Position numbers and translations under genes: made by a program. From sequence record NC_027378.1: DNA of 56,776 bases. One strand, 5' to 3'. Below, one piece after another: positions 3,882-49,441 of this stretch. The DNA comes from Escherichia phage Seurat. How positions within the stretch are numbered: position 1 is the first letter of the stretch; each line of letters starts with the position of its first letter. Under the pieces are notes generated by a model. That model was not told the DNA's origin, made no database searches, and was given only the letters and a program-made list of their open reading frames with translations.

Positions 3882-4754
3882 ATGAAAAAGAGTTCTGTAG
3901 CTATTAGTGTTGGTATGGCTTTAATTAATCCACGCGCTCGCGGTGAAGGTGATGTGGAACTGGAATACGAATATGCATCTGCGGAAGAGATCCCGGCAGA
4001 GTTTGCAACTCTTTACGCAGAGCAGGGCGGTAAATACGTTCTTGCAAAAGTTAAAGGTGTAGCCCCTGCTGATAGCGTTCGTCGTCTGGAAAGTGCATTG
4101 GCAAAAGAACGTAACGACCATCGTCAGGTGAAGCAACAGATTAGCGCACTTGGGCGTCCGGTTGAAGAAGTCCTTGCGGACCTTGATCGTATCCCTCAAC
4201 TAGAAGCTGCCGCTAACGGTAAAGGTACTCCAGAAGACATCGAAAAGATGGTTAAAGCCCGTCTTGCTCCGCTTGAGCGTCAATTGCAAACTGTAGCAGC
4301 TGAACGCGATTCCGTTAAGCAGGAAATTGAAGGCTACCGCACTCGCGAAACTAAAGCGAAGATTAAAGACGCAGTTATTGCTGCTGCATCCGGCGCTAAG
4401 CTGCGTCCGTCTGCTATCGAAGATGCGGTGACTTATGCACAGTTGCAAATGACCGTCGACGAGAACGGCAATGTGGTTACGAAAGATGGGGCGGGTGTAA
4501 CTCCATACCTAACCCCGGCGGATTGGCTTAACGAGATTCTCCCGAAACGTCCTCACTGGGTTGAGGGTTCTGCTGGTGGCGGTGCATCTGGTCCGGGCGC
4601 TGGCGGTCATCACGGTGAAGACCCATACAGTCACGACGGTTGGAACATCTCTAAGCAGATGAATCTCTGGAAAACTAATCAATCTTTAGCTAAACGCTTA
4701 GCTGAAAAGAATGGCGTAGATCCGCTGAAGCCTGTACGTCCTGCTAAGAAATAA
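3882..4754 (+). CDS. scaffolding protein (putative)
   Basis: 290 aa, charged helical coiled-coil-like sequence between portal and capsid genes. Confidence 0.5.
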   Translation: MKKSSVAISVGMALINPRARGEGDVELEYEYASAEEIPAEFATLYAEQGGKYVLAKVKGVAPADSVRRLESALAKERNDHRQVKQQISALGRPVEEVLADLDRIPQLEAAANGKGTPEDIEKMVKARLAPLERQLQTVAAERDSVKQEIEGYRTRETKAKIKDAVIAAASGAKLRPSAIEDAVTYAQLQMTVDENGNVVTKDGAGVTPYLTPADWLNEILPKRPHWVEGSAGGGASGPGAGGHHGEDPYSHDGWNISKQMNLWKTNQSLAKRLAEKNGVDPLKPVRPAKK

Positions 4755-20900: not shown

Positions 20901-21104
20901 ATGTGTGGTAATACTAACCGTTGCTGTCTAGGCAGTCCTGCAACACAAGCAGGTATACTTCAGGGGCAATTAGCTCAAGCGGCGTGTAATTGCAAAACTT
21001 TTCAACCAGTAGCTCCAACTCCTGTGTTTGTGAATGCTTTTGCACCGCCTGTTTTCAATACTTTTGGCGTATACCCATACGGTGCTTTCTTTCGTATATT
21101 CTAA
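20901..21104 (+). CDS. small Cys-rich protein of unknown function
   Basis: 67 aa; strong RBS AAGGAGG; MCGNTNRCCLGSP...CNCK then hydrophobic C-terminus; followed by a terminator. Confidence 0.45.
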   Translation: MCGNTNRCCLGSPATQAGILQGQLAQAACNCKTFQPVAPTPVFVNAFAPPVFNTFGVYPYGAFFRIF

Positions 21105-43174: not shown

Positions 43175-43199
43175 AAAGGGCCGAAAGGCCCTTTATTTA
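43175..43199. terminator. bidirectional intrinsic terminator
   Basis: AAAGGGCC-gaaa-GGCCCTTT followed by TTTATTTAT on plus, T-rich on minus. Confidence 0.6.
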
Positions 43200-45539
43200 T
43201 TCCTCTTCACCTAAGTTTGCCATAATTCCTTCAACATCTTGCGTAATGCGCCAAGCTGCCCCAGTAAATCCCAGTTTAATAGTCTCCTCCCGTGTTACCG
43301 GAACAAGTGCACCCATAGCAACCATTTCCTTGATTGTAGACTCGATTGCAGCGGACAATCCGTGATGATAGTTTTTAAACGCGGACTTACTTGCAAGACG
43401 CGTAGTAATATCACCCCGCGTGATAATACCTTCTTTGCGCAAATCTACACGTTTAACTTTGACCCAGTCTTTAGTTAGATAATTCACACAGACCTGACAC
43501 ATAGTACGGATACGAGCTTCATCGTTAGTCCCGATACCGCCGCTATGCCATTCCTTCATAATAATGTCCTGTCCATGTCGCACAAAGTCCAAAGCCCATT
43601 GCACATGATATGTCTGTACCACCGGATTGATCCAGTTTTCCCCAACTGCTAACAGGGCGGATAGACGTAACACCTTCAGGTGAGCACGGTTCCAGGGCTG
43701 ACGGATTGCTTCGTCTTTGGTTGCGTTAATATTACGGTCACATTCGTCGTTAAACTGATCACATAATGCTTCCGCTTCTGGACTAAACTGCACTTCAATA
43801 CTTTGATGCTTTGCCATTGCGACTAAGGTGTGGTTAACAAGATGGCACACCATATCACGCAAATGCTGATCCATTGTAGTCTGCTGGTTCTTGTTTAAAG
43901 GTGGTCGATCACCTTCATAGCGGACAACATGGAAACGGGATAAGAATCCATCCTCCATCATTTCACGGGTTAACGCTTCAAAAAACGTGTCCGGTGTTGT
44001 TTCGCCCATGATGCTATAGGCCACACCTTGTTGAGCTTCCGTATTATTAGCCTTATCAGAATAAGACATACCACCAACAATAGACATCTGACCGGACTTT
44101 TGATAAACATCGGTAAGATCATTCTTGAAGCTTTGCATCGGTGAACCTGCTGGCGCCGTAGCCATTGCTTTAATAATCTTACCAAACTCACCGTTCAAGT
44201 TGATAAAAGATTGTTTGTCTGCAAAAGATTTACGCAGTGCGGAGCCGGAAGCGCATCGGTCAAATGATACAAAGCTATGAATCTGCGGAAACGGTTCCTG
44301 AAGCTGGCTAACTATATTAGATAGACCACTGTTCAACGTTTCTTTACCAACACCAGAACGAGCAATAAGGACAAAATATCCATTAAGACCGGATTGAGGA
44401 ATCTGCCAAACCTTCCCGCATACGCCAGCCATAAATCCTAGTGCTGTCACAATAGAAATTTCTTTCACTGGTCGGACGGATGCCTTGTAGATGTACTTCG
44501 CAAGCTCCCCAGCAAGTCCCGGCGGCCAGTCAATGGCGGTTGCATCAATAGACGTACTTTCTGCAACTACGGTCTGCCCCTGTGTTGTTTCAACAGTTAC
44601 GGGCATTTCCGCTACCTGTTGCATTGCACTGTGTGCCGCTTGCATACGGGCAGCATAATCCCGCGCCAGCGCCGCTACGTTTTCCTGGGCAATGCGCTCA
44701 CGCTCCATGCGACCGCGACACATACGCAAGCAACGGTCAATATGAACATTGTTCTTATTAGCCTTCTCACGTTTGCCCAGTGCGCTATAACGGAACAGAC
44801 GACGACATTGCTCATTACTTTCCGTGTAAAATGCATACATAGAAATAAGGGCAAGGTCTGCTTCAGACTGGGAAGGGAATCCCATTTCAACCCATTCACC
44901 ATTGAATAGGCGTGCATACTTATCTCCGTTGTCCGCTTCAAGTGCACGCTGGTGAATAGTTGCATCGTCTTCTACCGGATCTTTTTCTACCAGTTCAATT
45001 TCATATGTCTTGCGCTGAAGATCAATTTCATTCACAAGCATAGTAAGATAATGATCGCGTTCGGCAACTGGTTTGTTATAGACAGGATTACCCGTGCAGA
45101 TAATAAAACGCTCCTGACTATAAACTTCGACACCATCACGTCGGCGACCTTTACCGATGTTTCCTCTTAACCACAGGTGAACGCCCAAGCCTGAGCGACT
45201 TACTTCGGTGTAAGTGTCGAACGCAGTCATGATCTGTTCGAAGCGACGCAATTGCTCCGGCGTAGTGTGCTTCTTGGGGTCCGGTTCATTGGTTGCGTTC
45301 TTCACATCCAGGTCGATGCAGGTGAACGGGTCTTGTGCAGTAAGCACGAAGCCAATATAAGGTTTATTGAAATGAGCGGCGCAACCTTTGGCAGCTTCAA
45401 ACGTCATAAGCATATCCGGATCGGTAACGTCCGCCGCCATCAAACGTCCAATATCGTTATCCCATACGAGCGGCTTTTTGTCCGTATCGGCGACAGCCCA
45501 TTGTGGGAAAGCTTTAATTTCAGCGGGAAACAGTTCCAT
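43197..45539 (-). CDS. DNA primase-polymerase (AEP-type) fused to a C-terminal helicase/NTPase
   Basis: N-terminal FTCIDLDV and SGLGVHLW primase motifs; PriCT-like SEADLALISMYAFYTE; Walker A LIARSGVGKET. Confidence 0.75.
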   Translation of the reverse strand: MELFPAEIKAFPQWAVADTDKKPLVWDNDIGRLMAADVTDPDMLMTFEAAKGCAAHFNKPYIGFVLTAQDPFTCIDLDVKNATNEPDPKKHTTPEQLRRFEQIMTAFDTYTEVSRSGLGVHLWLRGNIGKGRRRDGVEVYSQERFIICTGNPVYNKPVAERDHYLTMLVNEIDLQRKTYEIELVEKDPVEDDATIHQRALEADNGDKYARLFNGEWVEMGFPSQSEADLALISMYAFYTESNEQCRRLFRYSALGKREKANKNNVHIDRCLRMCRGRMERERIAQENVAALARDYAARMQAAHSAMQQVAEMPVTVETTQGQTVVAESTSIDATAIDWPPGLAGELAKYIYKASVRPVKEISIVTALGFMAGVCGKVWQIPQSGLNGYFVLIARSGVGKETLNSGLSNIVSQLQEPFPQIHSFVSFDRCASGSALRKSFADKQSFINLNGEFGKIIKAMATAPAGSPMQSFKNDLTDVYQKSGQMSIVGGMSYSDKANNTEAQQGVAYSIMGETTPDTFFEALTREMMEDGFLSRFHVVRYEGDRPPLNKNQQTTMDQHLRDMVCHLVNHTLVAMAKHQSIEVQFSPEAEALCDQFNDECDRNINATKDEAIRQPWNRAHLKVLRLSALLAVGENWINPVVQTYHVQWALDFVRHGQDIIMKEWHSGGIGTNDEARIRTMCQVCVNYLTKDWVKVKRVDLRKEGIITRGDITTRLASKSAFKNYHHGLSAAIESTIKEMVAMGALVPVTREETIKLGFTGAAWRITQDVEGIMANLGEEE

Positions 45540-45545
45540 ATTAAA

Positions 45546-45749
45546 TTAAGACCTCCGACGCTTATCGCCTTGCATTGCTATAAGTGCTGGCTCAGCAATT
45601 TCGCGCACGTATACAAATACGTTAGCGATACGAACAGCTCCAGGAAGTATATCTCGATTGCGGCACAACTTATAACGACTAACCCCGAAACGGGCTTCAA
45701 TCTCTGATGTGGTTATATATTTAGCATCAAACTCGTCTTGTGCAGTCAT
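45546..45749 (-). CDS. small helix-turn-helix DNA-binding protein (excisionase/AlpA-like)
   Basis: YITTSEIEARFGVSRYKLCRNRD HTH pattern; RBS AGGAGGAG. Confidence 0.55.
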   Translation of the reverse strand: MTAQDEFDAKYITTSEIEARFGVSRYKLCRNRDILPGAVRIANVFVYVREIAEPALIAMQGDKRRRS

Positions 45750-45810: not shown

Positions 45811-46593
45811 TTATTGGGCAGCAAAGTTTGCGTACTCCATAACGCATTCATATACCTCTTCAGGAGTGCGACCTTCCCGTAGATTTATCATCCATTCGTC
45901 CAATTGTCCAAGGCGTTGCTGAGCCTTCGTGATGTCATGAAATGCTTGCCATGGAAAAAAGTTTCCCCCAGCTAGTGCAACCTCTATGCCCGTAGCGGCG
46001 TTGCCATATGCCTTGAGCTTGCAAACAGGCCAACGTCCACGATTATCCCAAATTGCTGGTTCCACATTTTTATCCGGCCGCGAATACCATCTATTTTTAA
46101 GAGATGTGATTTCTTTTTCCGTTAACTGCTCACCCTTCGCACGCTCATTCTTGGCAAGCCAAACTTTAAACGCAGACTCATTATTTTTATCCTTTGTTTG
46201 GCAAACCTTAAAAGCATTCTCATATGGTGCTTCCGGTCCAAACCGTTTGTAGTAGTCAAACTTGCCGCGGAACTTTGCAACTTCTTTAGTTGTAAGTTCA
46301 CGGTTTTCTTTTTCCTTTATTTGTTCGCGCACCCATACCATAAACTTATCACGCTCAGGGTTTTCTTTTTTTGCAGCAGCTTTTCCGTGTTTAACTTTAG
46401 ACTTCACATCTTGTGCGCTATCAAAATAATCCTCAACCATCTTAAGAGCCTGCTCTTTAGTTACCTTTCCGCGGATACGGGAACACGCTTGCACGACCCA
46501 GGCTGCGAAGCACAAATCCTTAACCACATTGGGGTGAGTGCTGGTCGGCTGTTCCTCCACCACCGCGTTATTGTTAGTCAGCTCTGTATTCAT
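45811..46593 (-). CDS. hypothetical protein adjacent to the iteron region
   Basis: Track start is TTG at 46653; reset to the ATG at 46593 (RBS GGAGG); Lys-rich middle region. Confidence 0.5.
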   Translation of the reverse strand: MNTELTNNNAVVEEQPTSTHPNVVKDLCFAAWVVQACSRIRGKVTKEQALKMVEDYFDSAQDVKSKVKHGKAAAKKENPERDKFMVWVREQIKEKENRELTTKEVAKFRGKFDYYKRFGPEAPYENAFKVCQTKDKNNESAFKVWLAKNERAKGEQLTEKEITSLKNRWYSRPDKNVEPAIWDNRGRWPVCKLKAYGNAATGIEVALAGGNFFPWQAFHDITKAQQRLGQLDEWMINLREGRTPEEVYECVMEYANFAAQ

Positions 46594-46603
46594 ATAGCCT
46601 CCG

Positions 46604-46885
46604 ATAGGGTATTGCCTTAACCCTATGGTAAGACCCTCCCTATTAAATTGCAAGAGTTATTGTAAAACAATAGGTATAGGGTGCAATACAGGGTTCATAT
46701 AGGGTAACCCTATAAACACCCTATAAAATACCCTCCCTATGCAGCTTTCTAAATTTATAGTTTTAGTTTACCCCTTGCGCCCCCGCAGAAAAACTAAAGA
46801 TAGGGGTACTAGGGTAAACATTGGCAAATACCCTATACCCTACTCCCTATACTATGATTCTAAAAAATTTGGAGTATACCCCTAT
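46604..46885. repeat. iteron-like array of CCCTAT/ATAGGG hexamers (at least 12 copies, both orientations)
   Basis: Includes the palindrome TATAGGGTAACCCTATA near 46698-46714; about 0.14 copies expected by chance in 280 bp. Confidence 0.7.
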
Positions 46886-47060
46886 AAACTTATAAACTTT
46901 CAGTCAACTAACTAAAATAAAACTAATTAAACTAATATTAATAATAACTATAAATATATATAAAATAAGGATTTATTATTAATGTATATAGTACCTATTG
47001 GTATTATTTGACGAGTTTATGGTCATTATATAAACTCTATAAATTTTCATAAACCTGAAC
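46886..47060. other. AT-rich tract (candidate DNA unwinding element)
   Basis: About 175 bp almost devoid of G/C immediately after the iteron array; no ORF. Confidence 0.55.
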
Positions 47061-47224
47061 GGATGCAGATCAAAAACGAGAAGTCAAGTGCTTTTGAGAG
47101 AAATTTATTGAACTATTGTGATCGGAAGGTATATCAAGCTATAATGCGCTTAATCGCGGGATATTGGAGGAGGACTTTATTGCGCGGTTAACCGGACCAG
47201 TAGGAGGGCTGGCCCGGAAGTAGT

Positions 47225-47551
47225 TTAGAGCTGTACAGGTGTGAAGTGGGCTAGCGTATCGTCGGACATAATACCCGACAGTTTTTCGTTTACCCAGTCG
47301 GACCAAATGCTATCCGGTTCCTGGCGGTGTACGAACCAGATCTCGGATGTGCCTTCTTTGCGCATTGGTTGCACTTCTGCAAGGAACTTGTCCTGCATAA
47401 GGCGGGTGAAGCATACGCTGGTCATTGGAACCGGCTTTTCGTCTTTATTGTAATAAGGGACCAATATTTTATTTCCGAAGTCGGCAACTTCATAAACTGT
47501 TCCTTTGCGTAGACCCCGGATGTCAGTGTAAGAGCGAATGAACGTTTTCAT
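47225..47551 (-). CDS. hypothetical protein
   Basis: 108 aa. Confidence 0.45.
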   Translation of the reverse strand: MKTFIRSYTDIRGLRKGTVYEVADFGNKILVPYYNKDEKPVPMTSVCFTRLMQDKFLAEVQPMRKEGTSEIWFVHRQEPDSIWSDWVNEKLSGIMSDDTLAHFTPVQL

Positions 47552-47553
47552 AT

Positions 47554-47730
47554 TTATTTCCTTACGAACACAGAGCCGACGAATAATGTTGATTGAGTAG
47601 CAGCTTGCTCGATTAATTCGCCAACAAGCTGGGACTGCGTCAGAGGCTTAAGGCCTACTTTGGCGCGAGCTTCATTTACACGACGTTGAAGGTCTTTTAG
47701 GTATTGAGTTGCGAAACTATCTAATTGCAT
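47554..47730 (-). CDS. small protein (58 aa), not in the ORF track
   Basis: MQLDSFATQYLKDLQRRVNEARAKVGL...; stop abuts the next start. Confidence 0.4.
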   Translation of the reverse strand: MQLDSFATQYLKDLQRRVNEARAKVGLKPLTQSQLVGELIEQAATQSTLFVGSVFVRK

Positions 47731-47785
47731 CTTCTTATCCTTAGGGCTCCCGCAGAAGCCCGTCAGTGAACAGTGTGGTTATAGA

Positions 47786-47899
47786 TTATGCCAGTGAGTA
47801 CCTTGCTTTTAATTTTTGGTTTGCTGCGATAATTTTACATACAGGTATAACAACCAGAAGATCATTATAGTCCAGCCAGAATTGAATGAGCGCCTGCAT
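47786..47899 (-). CDS. micro-protein (37 aa), not in the ORF track
   Basis: ATG preceded by GGAGGG; start overlaps the stop of the 47904 gene. Confidence 0.3.
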   Translation of the reverse strand: MQALIQFWLDYNDLLVVIPVCKIIAANQKLKARYSLA

Positions 47900-47903
47900 T
47901 TAA

Positions 47904-48518
47904 TTAACCCTCCAAGCCGTTATATTTGCGCCAGGCGTAGAACTGAATGGCTACCGTCGTCCCGTTGTAAGAAGGCATTGCAGCTTTCATTTCTTTCAGC
48001 TCCGGCGTGCGGCCCAGTTCCTTCAGAAGCTTGTCGCCCATTGCCCACACTTCGGCAGTTTTTCCTTTCAGGGGCTTGCGAGCGCCATTTTTGAAATCAC
48101 AGCGAGCAGCTTTTACATCCTGTTTTGGCGCGGCAGCTTTTGGCTCTTCAATTTTGATTTCAGAAACCTGCGTGGCAGCTTTTGCGTGTTTCATATCTTT
48201 CTCTTCCTCCTGCTCCAGAGCTTCGAGGCAGCTTTTGACGATTTCCGGATTTACCATCGGGCGCAGTACCGAGACGCTGGCAGCTGGCGCGGCGGTCGGT
48301 GCCGGGACTTTCTGCTCCGGCTGTTGCGCTTTTTCGTGATCGCGAAGCACCTGAAGCACTTCCTTTTCGACAATGTAAAAACCGATGTCGTCCTGATGAA
48401 TTAACTGTTCGTGTGCGTCGCGTGCAACCTGACCCCAACGGTTCTTCAGGGCGCGGCGTGCATTCGTTTTCATGGTGTAACGCATTTTGTCCTGTTCGCG
48501 GTGAGTTACTTTAGACAT
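47904..48518 (-). CDS. hypothetical early protein
   Basis: 204 aa. Confidence 0.45.
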   Translation of the reverse strand: MSKVTHREQDKMRYTMKTNARRALKNRWGQVARDAHEQLIHQDDIGFYIVEKEVLQVLRDHEKAQQPEQKVPAPTAAPAASVSVLRPMVNPEIVKSCLEALEQEEEKDMKHAKAATQVSEIKIEEPKAAAPKQDVKAARCDFKNGARKPLKGKTAEVWAMGDKLLKELGRTPELKEMKAAMPSYNGTTVAIQFYAWRKYNGLEG

Positions 48519-48604
48519 GGTATATTCCTTCTGTTAGATTGTTTAGTAGTCTTGCTAAGTTGTACTTATTATTGCCCACTAAGTTGAAGTAGGCAAGATA
48601 TAAA

Positions 48605-49108
48605 TCAGCTATTTCTGATATTCTTTAGAGCTTGTGTACAAAAGAAAACATCCAGCAAAACAAGTTTTCCGTCTTTTACCGCCACATTGCGGGGACTGAT
48701 TTCAAACCACATTTGCGGACCAATATTAGCGCAAGCATCCAAAGCTTCCAGGAGCACATCTTTAATGTCTTGAGCCAGGTCGCTATTACTGAAAGCATCA
48801 TATAGATAGCTATAGTTGTCATATGTGTTACGCGGCATCTCTAACCCTGCGCACAAGCTGCGGAGTTGTTTATAGAGTGCGTATTGCTCAGGTTGTAAAG
48901 AGCTTTTTAAGCTGCGGACACGAGGGTAATAATCCATTTCGTAGACACCTGTGTCTATCATTGTGACATGGGGAAATAATTCATGCTCAGGAAACCATCC
49001 CCACGCCATGCATTCTTTAATAGGGTCGCAAGATTTTAGAAGTACGCGACCTGAGTCTAGAAGGTATGCCTTGGTGAAAGCGCCCTTGCCAATTAGTTTA
49101 GTAGCCAT
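48605..49108 (-). CDS. small protein kinase-like protein (atypical)
   Basis: Start reset to MATKL... with RBS AAGGAG; Gly-rich loop IGKGAFTKAY, VLLK, EISPRNV catalytic-loop-like, LLDVF DFG-like. Confidence 0.4.
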   Translation of the reverse strand: MATKLIGKGAFTKAYLLDSGRVLLKSCDPIKECMAWGWFPEHELFPHVTMIDTGVYEMDYYPRVRSLKSSLQPEQYALYKQLRSLCAGLEMPRNTYDNYSYLYDAFSNSDLAQDIKDVLLEALDACANIGPQMWFEISPRNVAVKDGKLVLLDVFFCTQALKNIRNS

Positions 49109-49441
49109 GTTGTGCTCCTTAATGTGGTTAAGTAGTATTGCTTTGTTGAAGTAATAATAGCCTTGCATCGTGATATTGAATAGGCCAAAAGTGCTATTTT
49201 AGATCACTATTACATCTACAGCTTTGCAGTAACGCTACGCTAAAAATGCAAAGTCTTACGTTTGCTAAACATGTAGATTTTGTGCACATCACTCTTAGTA
49301 CGTATAACGTCTATTATGTTAAATAGCTAACCTATTGATTTATGGTATGCCCTACGTGCGGTTGGATGAATGTCGTGTCTAAGTCTTTGTTTTAAAAGGT
49401 GCTAAAAATTTGATGGTGGAAAACTGTAAAAGTACATGTCA

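Follow-up and report, generated by a model that had tools for sequence, protein, structure and literature searches.

Introduction

A gap of about 630 bases (46594-47224) separates two minus-strand genes of Escherichia phage Seurat (NC_027378.1), and it holds a dense set of short repeats next to an extremely AT-rich tract. Which process do these elements serve, and which proteins read them? The window, i.e. the whole stretch of 56,776 nucleotides analysed here, belongs to the genus Seuratvirus, as does phage CAjan of the subfamily Queuovirinae; for the Seuratvirus group no origin, iterons or transcription map are described in the literature that we searched. The original prediction, made from the letters of the DNA, proposed either a replication origin composed of iterons and an unwinding element or an operator array. 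Our analysis favours, with a probability of roughly 0.55, a two-tier origin region. Its first tier would be an AT-rich core with words specific for the primase-helicase of the phage, and its second an accessory array of CCCTATA words read by a 260-amino-acid (aa) protein. The origin proposal is the best supported of the readings, on the indirect evidence of the instability of the AT tract, the minimum of the GC skew, the position at the head of the replication operon and the co-variation of words with proteins, while the CCCTAT words that had been taken for iterons are probably not helicase-loading sites.

The genes around the gap are the following:

47225-47551, minus strand: 108-aa gene, upstream of the gap
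45811-46593, minus strand: 260-aa ORFan protein (phrog_27223), candidate binder of the CCCTATA array; the gap is its 5' flank
45546-45749, minus strand: 67-aa protein (phrog_11967), helix-turn-helix (HTH)-like by eye; does not track the repeat type
43197-45539, minus strand: primase-helicase of 780 aa, with a primase-polymerase (prim-pol) domain, an NrS-1-type helix-bundle domain (HBD), a putative superfamily 3 (SF3) helicase and a C-terminal region; candidate self-loading initiator

The gap heads the operon of the 260-aa gene, the 67-aa gene and the primase-helicase gene. The predicted context, namely the 5' flank of the 45811-46593 gene close to a primase-helicase gene, agrees with this gene map, in which the 67-aa gene and then the primase-helicase gene lie 3' of 45811-46593. 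The HTH gene of the same prediction looks the part by eye, but its 67-aa product gives no significant match in Pfam, NCBIfam or the PDB.

The AT-rich core lies at the skew minimum

The G+C content is 18% over 46882-47057, 12% over 46909-47009 and 6% over 46933-46983. At lengths of 50, 100 and 175 bp this tract is the least stable duplex of the 56.8-kb window (z = 5.1-5.4; next best 2.7-3.1). A tract of about 175 bp almost free of G/C had been described; the tract is real and extreme, but that wording fits its central 50-100 bp only. The elements of the core are as follows:

46898-47014: AT-rich core, candidate DNA unwinding element, 117 bp; its central ~60 bp (46950-47011) are near-invariant in nine phages
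46883-46889 and 46891-46897, plus strand: left core words, YATAAAC twice in direct orientation; allele P2 of the primase (below) goes with C(N)AAAAC at the same offsets
47015-47021 (minus), 47029-47035 (plus) and 47048-47054 (plus): right core words, YATAAAC

The core words keep fixed offsets from an invariant anchor, ATATATATAAAATAAGG (46954-46970), at -71 (plus), -63 (plus), +61 (minus), +75 (plus) and +94 (plus). Conservation over the gap is stepwise. The right 120 bp (47102-47224) are near-invariant in all Escherichia Seuratviruses and so is the AT core (~46950-47011), whereas the array part can be aligned only with the closest relatives. The Escherichia phages CAjan and slur01 match the window with ~96% identity over the 3 kb around the gap and 98% over the gap itself.

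A cumulative GC-skew plot had been suggested as a check of the origin. Its global minimum is found at 46948, inside the AT core, and its maximum at 20992; the minimum does not coincide with the switch in gene strand, which lies near 49.3 kb. In the four minus-strand genes at 47225-49168 the mean coding-strand skew is -0.034, against +0.095 (standard deviation 0.058) for the 29 minus-strand genes to the left (Mann-Whitney p = 0.0013), and the skew at third codon positions differs likewise (p = 0.03). A contrast of this kind would be expected if an asymmetry boundary linked to replication lay at the gap.

Core words vary with the C-terminal part of the primase-helicase

Comparison of relatives, on which all co-variation reported here is based, shows that the type of core word changes together with the C-terminal allele of the primase-helicase, phage yong3 being uninformative. 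The alleles and their words are listed below (L numbers designate compared loci):

P1, YATAAAC: window, CAjan, KurtStettler, KS_A8, L011 (n = 5)
P2, C(N)AAAAC: WildeMaa, SA126VB, Dru_SM1, GottfriedDienst, Skure, VogelGryff (n = 6)
Further allele, YATAAAAT (right-hand words): L012, L047 (two contigs)

Residues 1-300 of the P1 and P2 primases, which comprise the prim-pol and helix-bundle domains, are 100% identical. Residues 301-780 are 27-82% identical per 50-aa block, with 27-52% in the last 130 residues (window compared with L042-L046), so a sharp mosaic breakpoint lies in the primase gene at the end of the helix-bundle domain. The type of array assorts independently of this link between core words and primase, as CACTATA arrays are found beside all three primase alleles (P1, P2 and the further one). 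Because the YATAAAC set directly flanks the AT core and tracks the C-terminal allele of the primase-helicase, the CCCTAT words are probably not the words on which the helicase is loaded.

The N-terminal 260 residues of the primase match prim-pol structures. The best match is PriRep5 of the Staphylococcus aureus pathogenicity island (SaPI) SaPI5 (PDB entry 7OLA; E = 8.7e-11 with the single sequence and 7e-17 with a profile, residues 4-263), followed by the N300 fragment of NrS-1 polymerase. Pfam detects the NrS-1-type HBD in all relatives and DUF3987 in four of the five. SaPI Reps are self-loading helicases that double as initiators, and their C-terminal winged-helix domain binds penta- or hexanucleotide iterons (PMC9371898). 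A SaPI origin has six to twelve iterons round a central AT-rich region, at least two on each side and in opposite directions, and the ATPase domain of PriRep5 is of the SF3 type with the NrS-1 helicase domain as its nearest structural relative (PMC9371898). The way the core is built, and the way its words change along with the helicase C-terminal part, fit the design of a SaPI PriRep origin.

The CCCTATA array and its candidate reader

CCCTAT or ATAGGG occurs 23 times in the window, compared with 19.4 times per 56.8 kb in shuffled sequences. Twelve of the 23 copies (8 plus, 4 minus) fall in 46604-46885, where ~0.1 is expected per 282 bp from the shuffles, and the original count of at least 12 copies in about 280 bp, far above chance, is thereby reproduced. 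Addition of two CCCTA(C/G) variants gives 14 sites in two clusters ~60 bp apart. The extended consensus is (T/A)ACCCTATA, and ACCCTATA is found six times in the window, five of them inside the array. In the rest of the window the word does not exceed chance, the 8-mer with at most one mismatch is at chance level, and no second CCCTAT cluster exists. The words are 8-9 bp long, stand in both orientations and are irregularly spaced by 7-66 bp:

46604-46740: cluster 1, eight CCCTAT sites at 46604 (minus), 46621 (plus), 46638 (plus), 46676 (minus), 46699 (minus), 46708 (plus), 46719 (plus) and 46735 (plus)
46698-46714: inverted site pair TATAGGGT-A-ACCCTATA, with 8-nt perfect arms and one central base
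46741-46799: spacer between the clusters, partly conserved (TTTACCCCTT...CCCCG)
46800-46885: cluster 2, sites at 46800 (minus), 46810 (minus, variant CCCTAG), 46831 (plus), 46838 (plus, variant CCCTAC), 46845 (plus) and 46880 (plus)

The inverted pair, TATAGGGTAACCCTATA, had been called a perfect palindrome; its two 8-nt arms are indeed perfect, but they enclose one unpaired A and the element is not strictly palindromic. The first site of cluster 1 lies 10 nt upstream of the start codon of the 45811-46593 gene.

The word at the array position differs between relatives:

CCCTATA, 12-14 copies: window, CAjan
CCACTATA, 10-15 copies: KurtStettler, KS_A8, SeppeHuegi, SA126VB, WildeMaa
TGGAATAA, 8-10 copies: GottfriedDienst, Skure, VogelGryff
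CCACTATA and TGGAATAA, both: Dru_SM1

The two-cluster layout is common to the CCCTATA and CCACTATA phages, and in the B-type relatives the layout of cluster 1 carries the other word, CACTATA. The 260-aa alleles of these two groups are only 42-48% identical. Their N-terminal ~60 residues are conserved (57-74%), while the middle and C-terminal parts are allele-specific (34-48%).

Two natural swaps separate the array from the rest of the region. In the P1 background, the window and CAjan have a primase 100% identical to that of KurtStettler and a conserved right flank, while their 260-aa proteins are 43% identical (A versus B clade) and the word is CCCTA (14 copies) versus CACTA (13 copies). The second swap is between the metagenomic contigs L012 and L047, whose primases are 99-100% identical and carry the allele other than P1 and P2. 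Over the AT core and the right flank the two contigs mostly agree at 90-100% identity, except in a single patch of ~50 bp; L012 combines an A-clade protein with 12 CCCTA words and L047 a B-clade protein with 16 CACTA words, the two proteins being 47% identical. Cluster 2 can be aligned in both pairs, and every repeat core in it is altered alike (GGG to GTA or GTG, CCCTA to CACTA), for example TAGGGGTACTAGGGTAAAC to TAGTAGTAGTAGTGAAAAC and ACCCTAT to CCACTAT. Selection on the site family of one protein would produce such a concerted change. Array words and 260-aa protein thus co-vary as cognate pairs in two backgrounds, with yong3 and the chimeric protein P0002 as exceptions. We read the CCCTATA array as the probable binding and autoregulatory site of the 260-aa protein, its candidate reader.

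Two other readers were considered and rejected. For the 67-aa protein, the recognition helix is independent of the word type, as L012 has A-type words together with a B-like helix. For the primase, identical proteins occur with different arrays.

The phrog_27223 gene is confined to Seuratviruses, with 22 phage records and three representatives among 1.84 billion proteins. Only Seuratvirus relatives came back from Pfam, PHROGs, NCBIfam and the PDB, the last searched by sequence and by profile, and likewise from 5.8 G proteins searched through a word index and from 1.84 G representatives scanned in full with HMMER. In these searches the protein resembles no winged-helix Rep, lambda O or other recognisable initiator, and no fold match was detected. 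The TGGAATAA phages lack the gene and have three small genes instead, one of which encodes a 93-aa protein (L007:1608-1889, GottfriedDienst; also L008 and L010) that weakly matches the AP2 domain (E = 2e-4, short of the Pfam cut-off). In these phages (GottfriedDienst L007, also L008 and L010) the TGGAATAA words flank the AT core on both sides. In Dru_SM1 (L009:2181-3520) the gap measures 1340 bp and holds a CACTATA array as well as a TGGAATAA array, which looks like a fusion of two accessory cassettes.

Promoters and hairpins of the gap

The following elements lie beside or within the array and to the right of the core:

46625-46653, minus strand: promoter-like element of the 260-aa gene, TTGCAA (46653-46648), 17-nt spacer, TACCAT (46630-46625); read from the sequence, 8 of 12, under the threshold of the scanner
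47116-47145, plus strand: sigma-70-like promoter TTGTGA-N18-TATAAT, 10 of 12, directed away from the AT core and followed by a segment rich in G clusters
47150-47191 and 47192-47217: two adjacent hairpins (z = -2.9 on the plus strand and -3.4 on the minus strand), just past the stop codon of the upstream minus-strand gene

The first of these, weak by its score, is the putative promoter of the 260-aa gene. TTGCAA stands at the same alignment column in five relatives, and the -10 element of KurtStettler is TATAGT. In the window the TACCAT -10 element abuts the CCCTAT site 46621-46626 and the spacer includes the site 46638-46643, so that the array spans the promoter-like element and continues to the ribosome-binding site of the gene.

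The outward promoter lies in a 110-bp block that is near-invariant in nine phages, and the diverged loci L011, L012, L047 and yong3 have it too, with the spacer (GGTATATCAAG) conserved. A scan of IMG/VR with the conserved promoter word gave three true relatives among 25 hits. The G+C-normal stretch with hairpins of the original prediction corresponds to the two hairpins, which were obtained by folding; in L012 and yong3 the distal stem persists with different base pairs, in a comparison of four sequences only. In SA126VB the homologous gap carries a promoter and a terminator in the authors' annotation. In the window a terminator-like hairpin with a T-run is found at 47417-47435 (plus strand), within the minus-strand gene 47225-47551; this hairpin and the promoter at 47116-47145 would bound an antisense RNA of ~290 nt. 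Reading the words as T7-like promoters (CACTATA and TATAGGGAG resemble the T7 promoter) was rejected, as the sites are dense and in both orientations and no single-subunit RNA polymerase gene is present among the genes examined nearby.

A two-tier model of the origin region

The repeats, the singular instability of the AT tract, the place where the skew minimum falls and the two kinds of co-variation are observed; which protein binds which word, and that replication starts in the gap, we infer. In the first tier, the 117-bp AT-rich element at 46898-47014 would be unwound between YATAAAC words on both sides, two direct ones on the left and one inverted plus two direct ones on the right. The C-terminal part of the primase-helicase would read these words, and the protein would load itself on either side of the AT tract and prime there, as the fused SaPI5 primase-Rep does at its own origin. 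In the second tier, the 260-aa protein would bind the 14 (T/A)ACCCTATA words (46604-46885), which separate the core from its own gene, the first of the replication operon. Since the array covers the likely promoter and the 5' leader of the 260-aa gene, with one site 10 nt from the ATG, occupancy would repress the operon. On the array the protein may also form a nucleoprotein complex beside the core that helps or licenses initiation. The outward promoter at 47116-47145 could aid melting or priming, either by negative supercoiling behind RNA polymerase or by an R-loop in the G-rich segment. Transcription away from oriC at gidA and G-rich R-loop primers are known analogies.

Several observations weigh against this model. 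In the primase of the window itself DUF3987 is not detected at E <= 0.01, and the sequence match to PriRep5 is limited to the prim-pol part, leaving the helicase and the C-terminal DNA-binding domain unmatched. The core words sit in a generally diverged haplotype block, so linkage could account for part of their association with the primase alleles. Hafnia phage yong3 lacks the 260-aa gene and yet has four ACCCCTATA(A) words in the homologous gap, with its CCCCTATA words kept, and the gene is also missing in the GottfriedDienst-type phages; the 260-aa protein is therefore dispensable for this type of replicon and is not the sole possible reader of the words. The protein P0002 is chimeric, with a C-terminal domain nearest to the B type, yet the words beside it are TACCCCTA. 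The GC skew is largely confounded with gene orientation. Its minimum becomes sharper through the C content of the array and the G content of the segment to the right, and four genes underlie the per-gene test. The reversed or null skew of the 47225-49168 genes could reflect a different origin or expression class of those genes.

As an extension of the two-tier model, and one that we regard as rather doubtful, the region may be a modular origin with two keys. A self-loading primase-helicase would read the core words, and an exchangeable specificity cassette would decide whether or when the origin fires. The cassette may consist of 10-16 words and a cognate protein of a fold class unseen among known initiators (the 260-aa ORFan here, small AP2-like proteins elsewhere). 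If so, cassettes could be determinants of replicon identity or incompatibility between co-infecting relatives, which would explain the at least three mutually exclusive word and protein types on otherwise near-identical genomes.

Alternative readings

The alternative that survives best, possible though clearly behind the two-tier origin, is a purely transcriptional hub. The CCCTATA words would be operators of an autoregulator of the replication operon, either the 260-aa protein or another one, and replication would start elsewhere. The AT tract would be curved or UP-element DNA or an H-NS-type binding region, and the plus-strand promoter would make an antisense or small RNA. The operator array of the original prediction is in this sense still a live option for the CCCTAT words, which track the 260-aa gene and run through its likely promoter to the ribosome-binding site. 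A conserved sigma-70-like promoter and hairpins adjoin, SA126VB has its promoter and terminator annotation, and absence of the 260-aa gene from some relatives is easier to understand for a regulator than for an initiator. However, a hub leaves unexplained why the genome's thermodynamic extreme is this AT tract, whose centre is invariant, why inverted flanking words switch with the C-terminal allele of the primase-helicase, and why the skew minimum is at the gap instead of the point of divergent transcription. Fourteen sites in both orientations would also be unusual for a simple operator.

It is improbable that the words are recognition or priming sites of the prim-pol domain, with the array as a dense priming zone. 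Archaeo-eukaryotic primase (AEP)-type prim-pols with a helix-bundle domain do recognise short template words such as GTG(A/G) (PMC8718748), and the B-type words (L002-L006, L047), ATAGTG(G/A), contain this motif. The invariant AT core also holds ATTGGTAT (46997-47004), which resembles the recognition site TTTGGTTA of the NrS-1 prim-pol; this element or the GTG of the B-type words could mark priming starts, or the likeness could be coincidence. Residues 1-300, however, are 100% identical across CCCTATA, CACTATA and TGGAATAA phages and so cannot set the specificity for the words, and the A-type words contain no GTG.

Still less probable is an array without function, left by recombination round homing-endonuclease genes, by a decayed mobile element or by low-complexity drift. 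The region is mosaic, and HNH genes are inserted at several points in relatives. Yet diverged relatives retain 10-16 copies of one word in place despite drift around them (L012), homologous repeats switch to a new word in concert, and the two-cluster layout is conserved, a combination that is unexpected without selection and argues against this view.

A packaging (pac/cos) or centromere-like partition site is the least credible alternative, for although two clusters of short repeats resemble parC-type centromeres and the database records of some relatives start near the region, the terminase-size open reading frames (ORFs) are at the start of the window and the genome ends at its ends, in the related phage 9g, where pac has been mapped, its 21-bp G+C-rich repeats, SRYCRCGGGRCG, are unrelated (PMC5567051), no ParA/ParM-type gene is nearby, and the phage is lytic.

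Comparison with known origins

The proposed two-tier origin region resembles SaPI5, with PriRep5 (7OLA), in several aspects. Both have a protein of ~780-800 aa with homologous prim-pol and HBD parts (E = 7e-17), fused to a hexameric helicase that is putative in the phage. In both, words of 5-7 nt flank a central AT-rich region, and at least one pair of them points in opposite directions. Changes in the C-terminal part of the helicase go along with changes of word specificity in both (PMC9371898 for SaPI; comparison of relatives here). A SaPI origin lies directly downstream of rep, whereas the candidate here is ~1.3 kb upstream of the start of the primase gene with two genes between them. The 14-site array, its own ORFan protein and the conserved outward promoter are additional, and the host replicon is a lytic siphovirus and not a satellite island.

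Iteron replicons whose initiator gene is autoregulated, such as P1 oriR/RepA, pSC101, R6K and lambda ori/O, likewise have an AT-rich element beside a word array that overlaps the promoter, or here the promoter-like element, of a neighbouring gene, and in lambdoid O/ori types the alleles of word and protein are exchanged as a unit. Their repeats are phased direct repeats of 17-22 bp, in contrast to the words of 8-9 bp in both orientations at spacings of 7-66 bp found here, and the region contains no DnaA boxes. The 260-aa neighbour, moreover, has no similarity to winged-helix Reps or lambda O, and some related phages lack its gene. Satellite phage P4, with its alpha primase-helicase at ori/crr, and N15 RepA represent the similar case of one multifunctional primase-helicase that binds 8-bp repeats in both orientations at an origin. 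P4 differs by a second, distant repeat region (crr), of which there is none in this window.

The gap would be the first candidate origin for the Queuovirinae. Short repeats with an AT-rich element are a known kind of origin; what is new is the proposed two-tier design with independently assorting specificity. An ORFan family without a recognisable DNA-binding fold gains its first candidate role, as a repeat reader. This subfamily, with CAjan, Seurat, 9g and the BASEL phages Bas19-25, supplies widely used model and therapy-candidate coliphages that are known for 7-deazaguanine DNA, and the literature that we searched describes neither an origin nor a mechanism of initiation for them. The two allele-specific word sets offer directly testable protein-DNA pairs, with natural specificity variants that differ by a single base (CCCTATA/CACTATA; ATAAAC/AAAAAC/ATAAAAT). 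If the model is correct, the use of a SaPI-type self-loading primase-helicase with short flanking iterons extends from staphylococcal satellites to lytic enterobacterial siphoviruses, and the swappable cassette would be a handle for engineering replication compatibility in phage cocktails.

Further features of the region and its relatives

The 42-aa ORF at 47063-47191 (plus strand), which is an annotated gene in KS_A8, is probably not a gene; its start codon and N-terminal half are unconserved in GottfriedDienst and Skure, and its 3' half lies in the invariant non-coding block. No tRNA genes were found. Rfam gave no match in the window at the gathering threshold, nor one in 46400-47600 at E <= 1.

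HNH homing-endonuclease genes occur at varying points round the replication module of relatives (L001:5102-5584; L009:641-1165; L011:1724-2188 and 4064-4597; L039:2689-3312) and not in the window, and they may drive the mosaic exchange of the region. In the Seuratvirus yong3 (L039:3507-4541) the gap is 1035 bp long and contains seven YATAAAC words, an AT-rich stretch and the conserved plus-strand promoter; its depositors named the primase 'MCM7-like licensing factor' and a 65-aa protein 'cox'. Nonagvirus JenP2, of the sister genus (L041:5703-6736), has a repeat-rich gap of 1034 bp upstream of its replication operon, which may be the equivalent region with unrelated words: it holds three copies each of GCAATATACGA and ATTTATAAAG, many words that resemble TTTGCAAAA, a patch rich in AT and a part rich in G.

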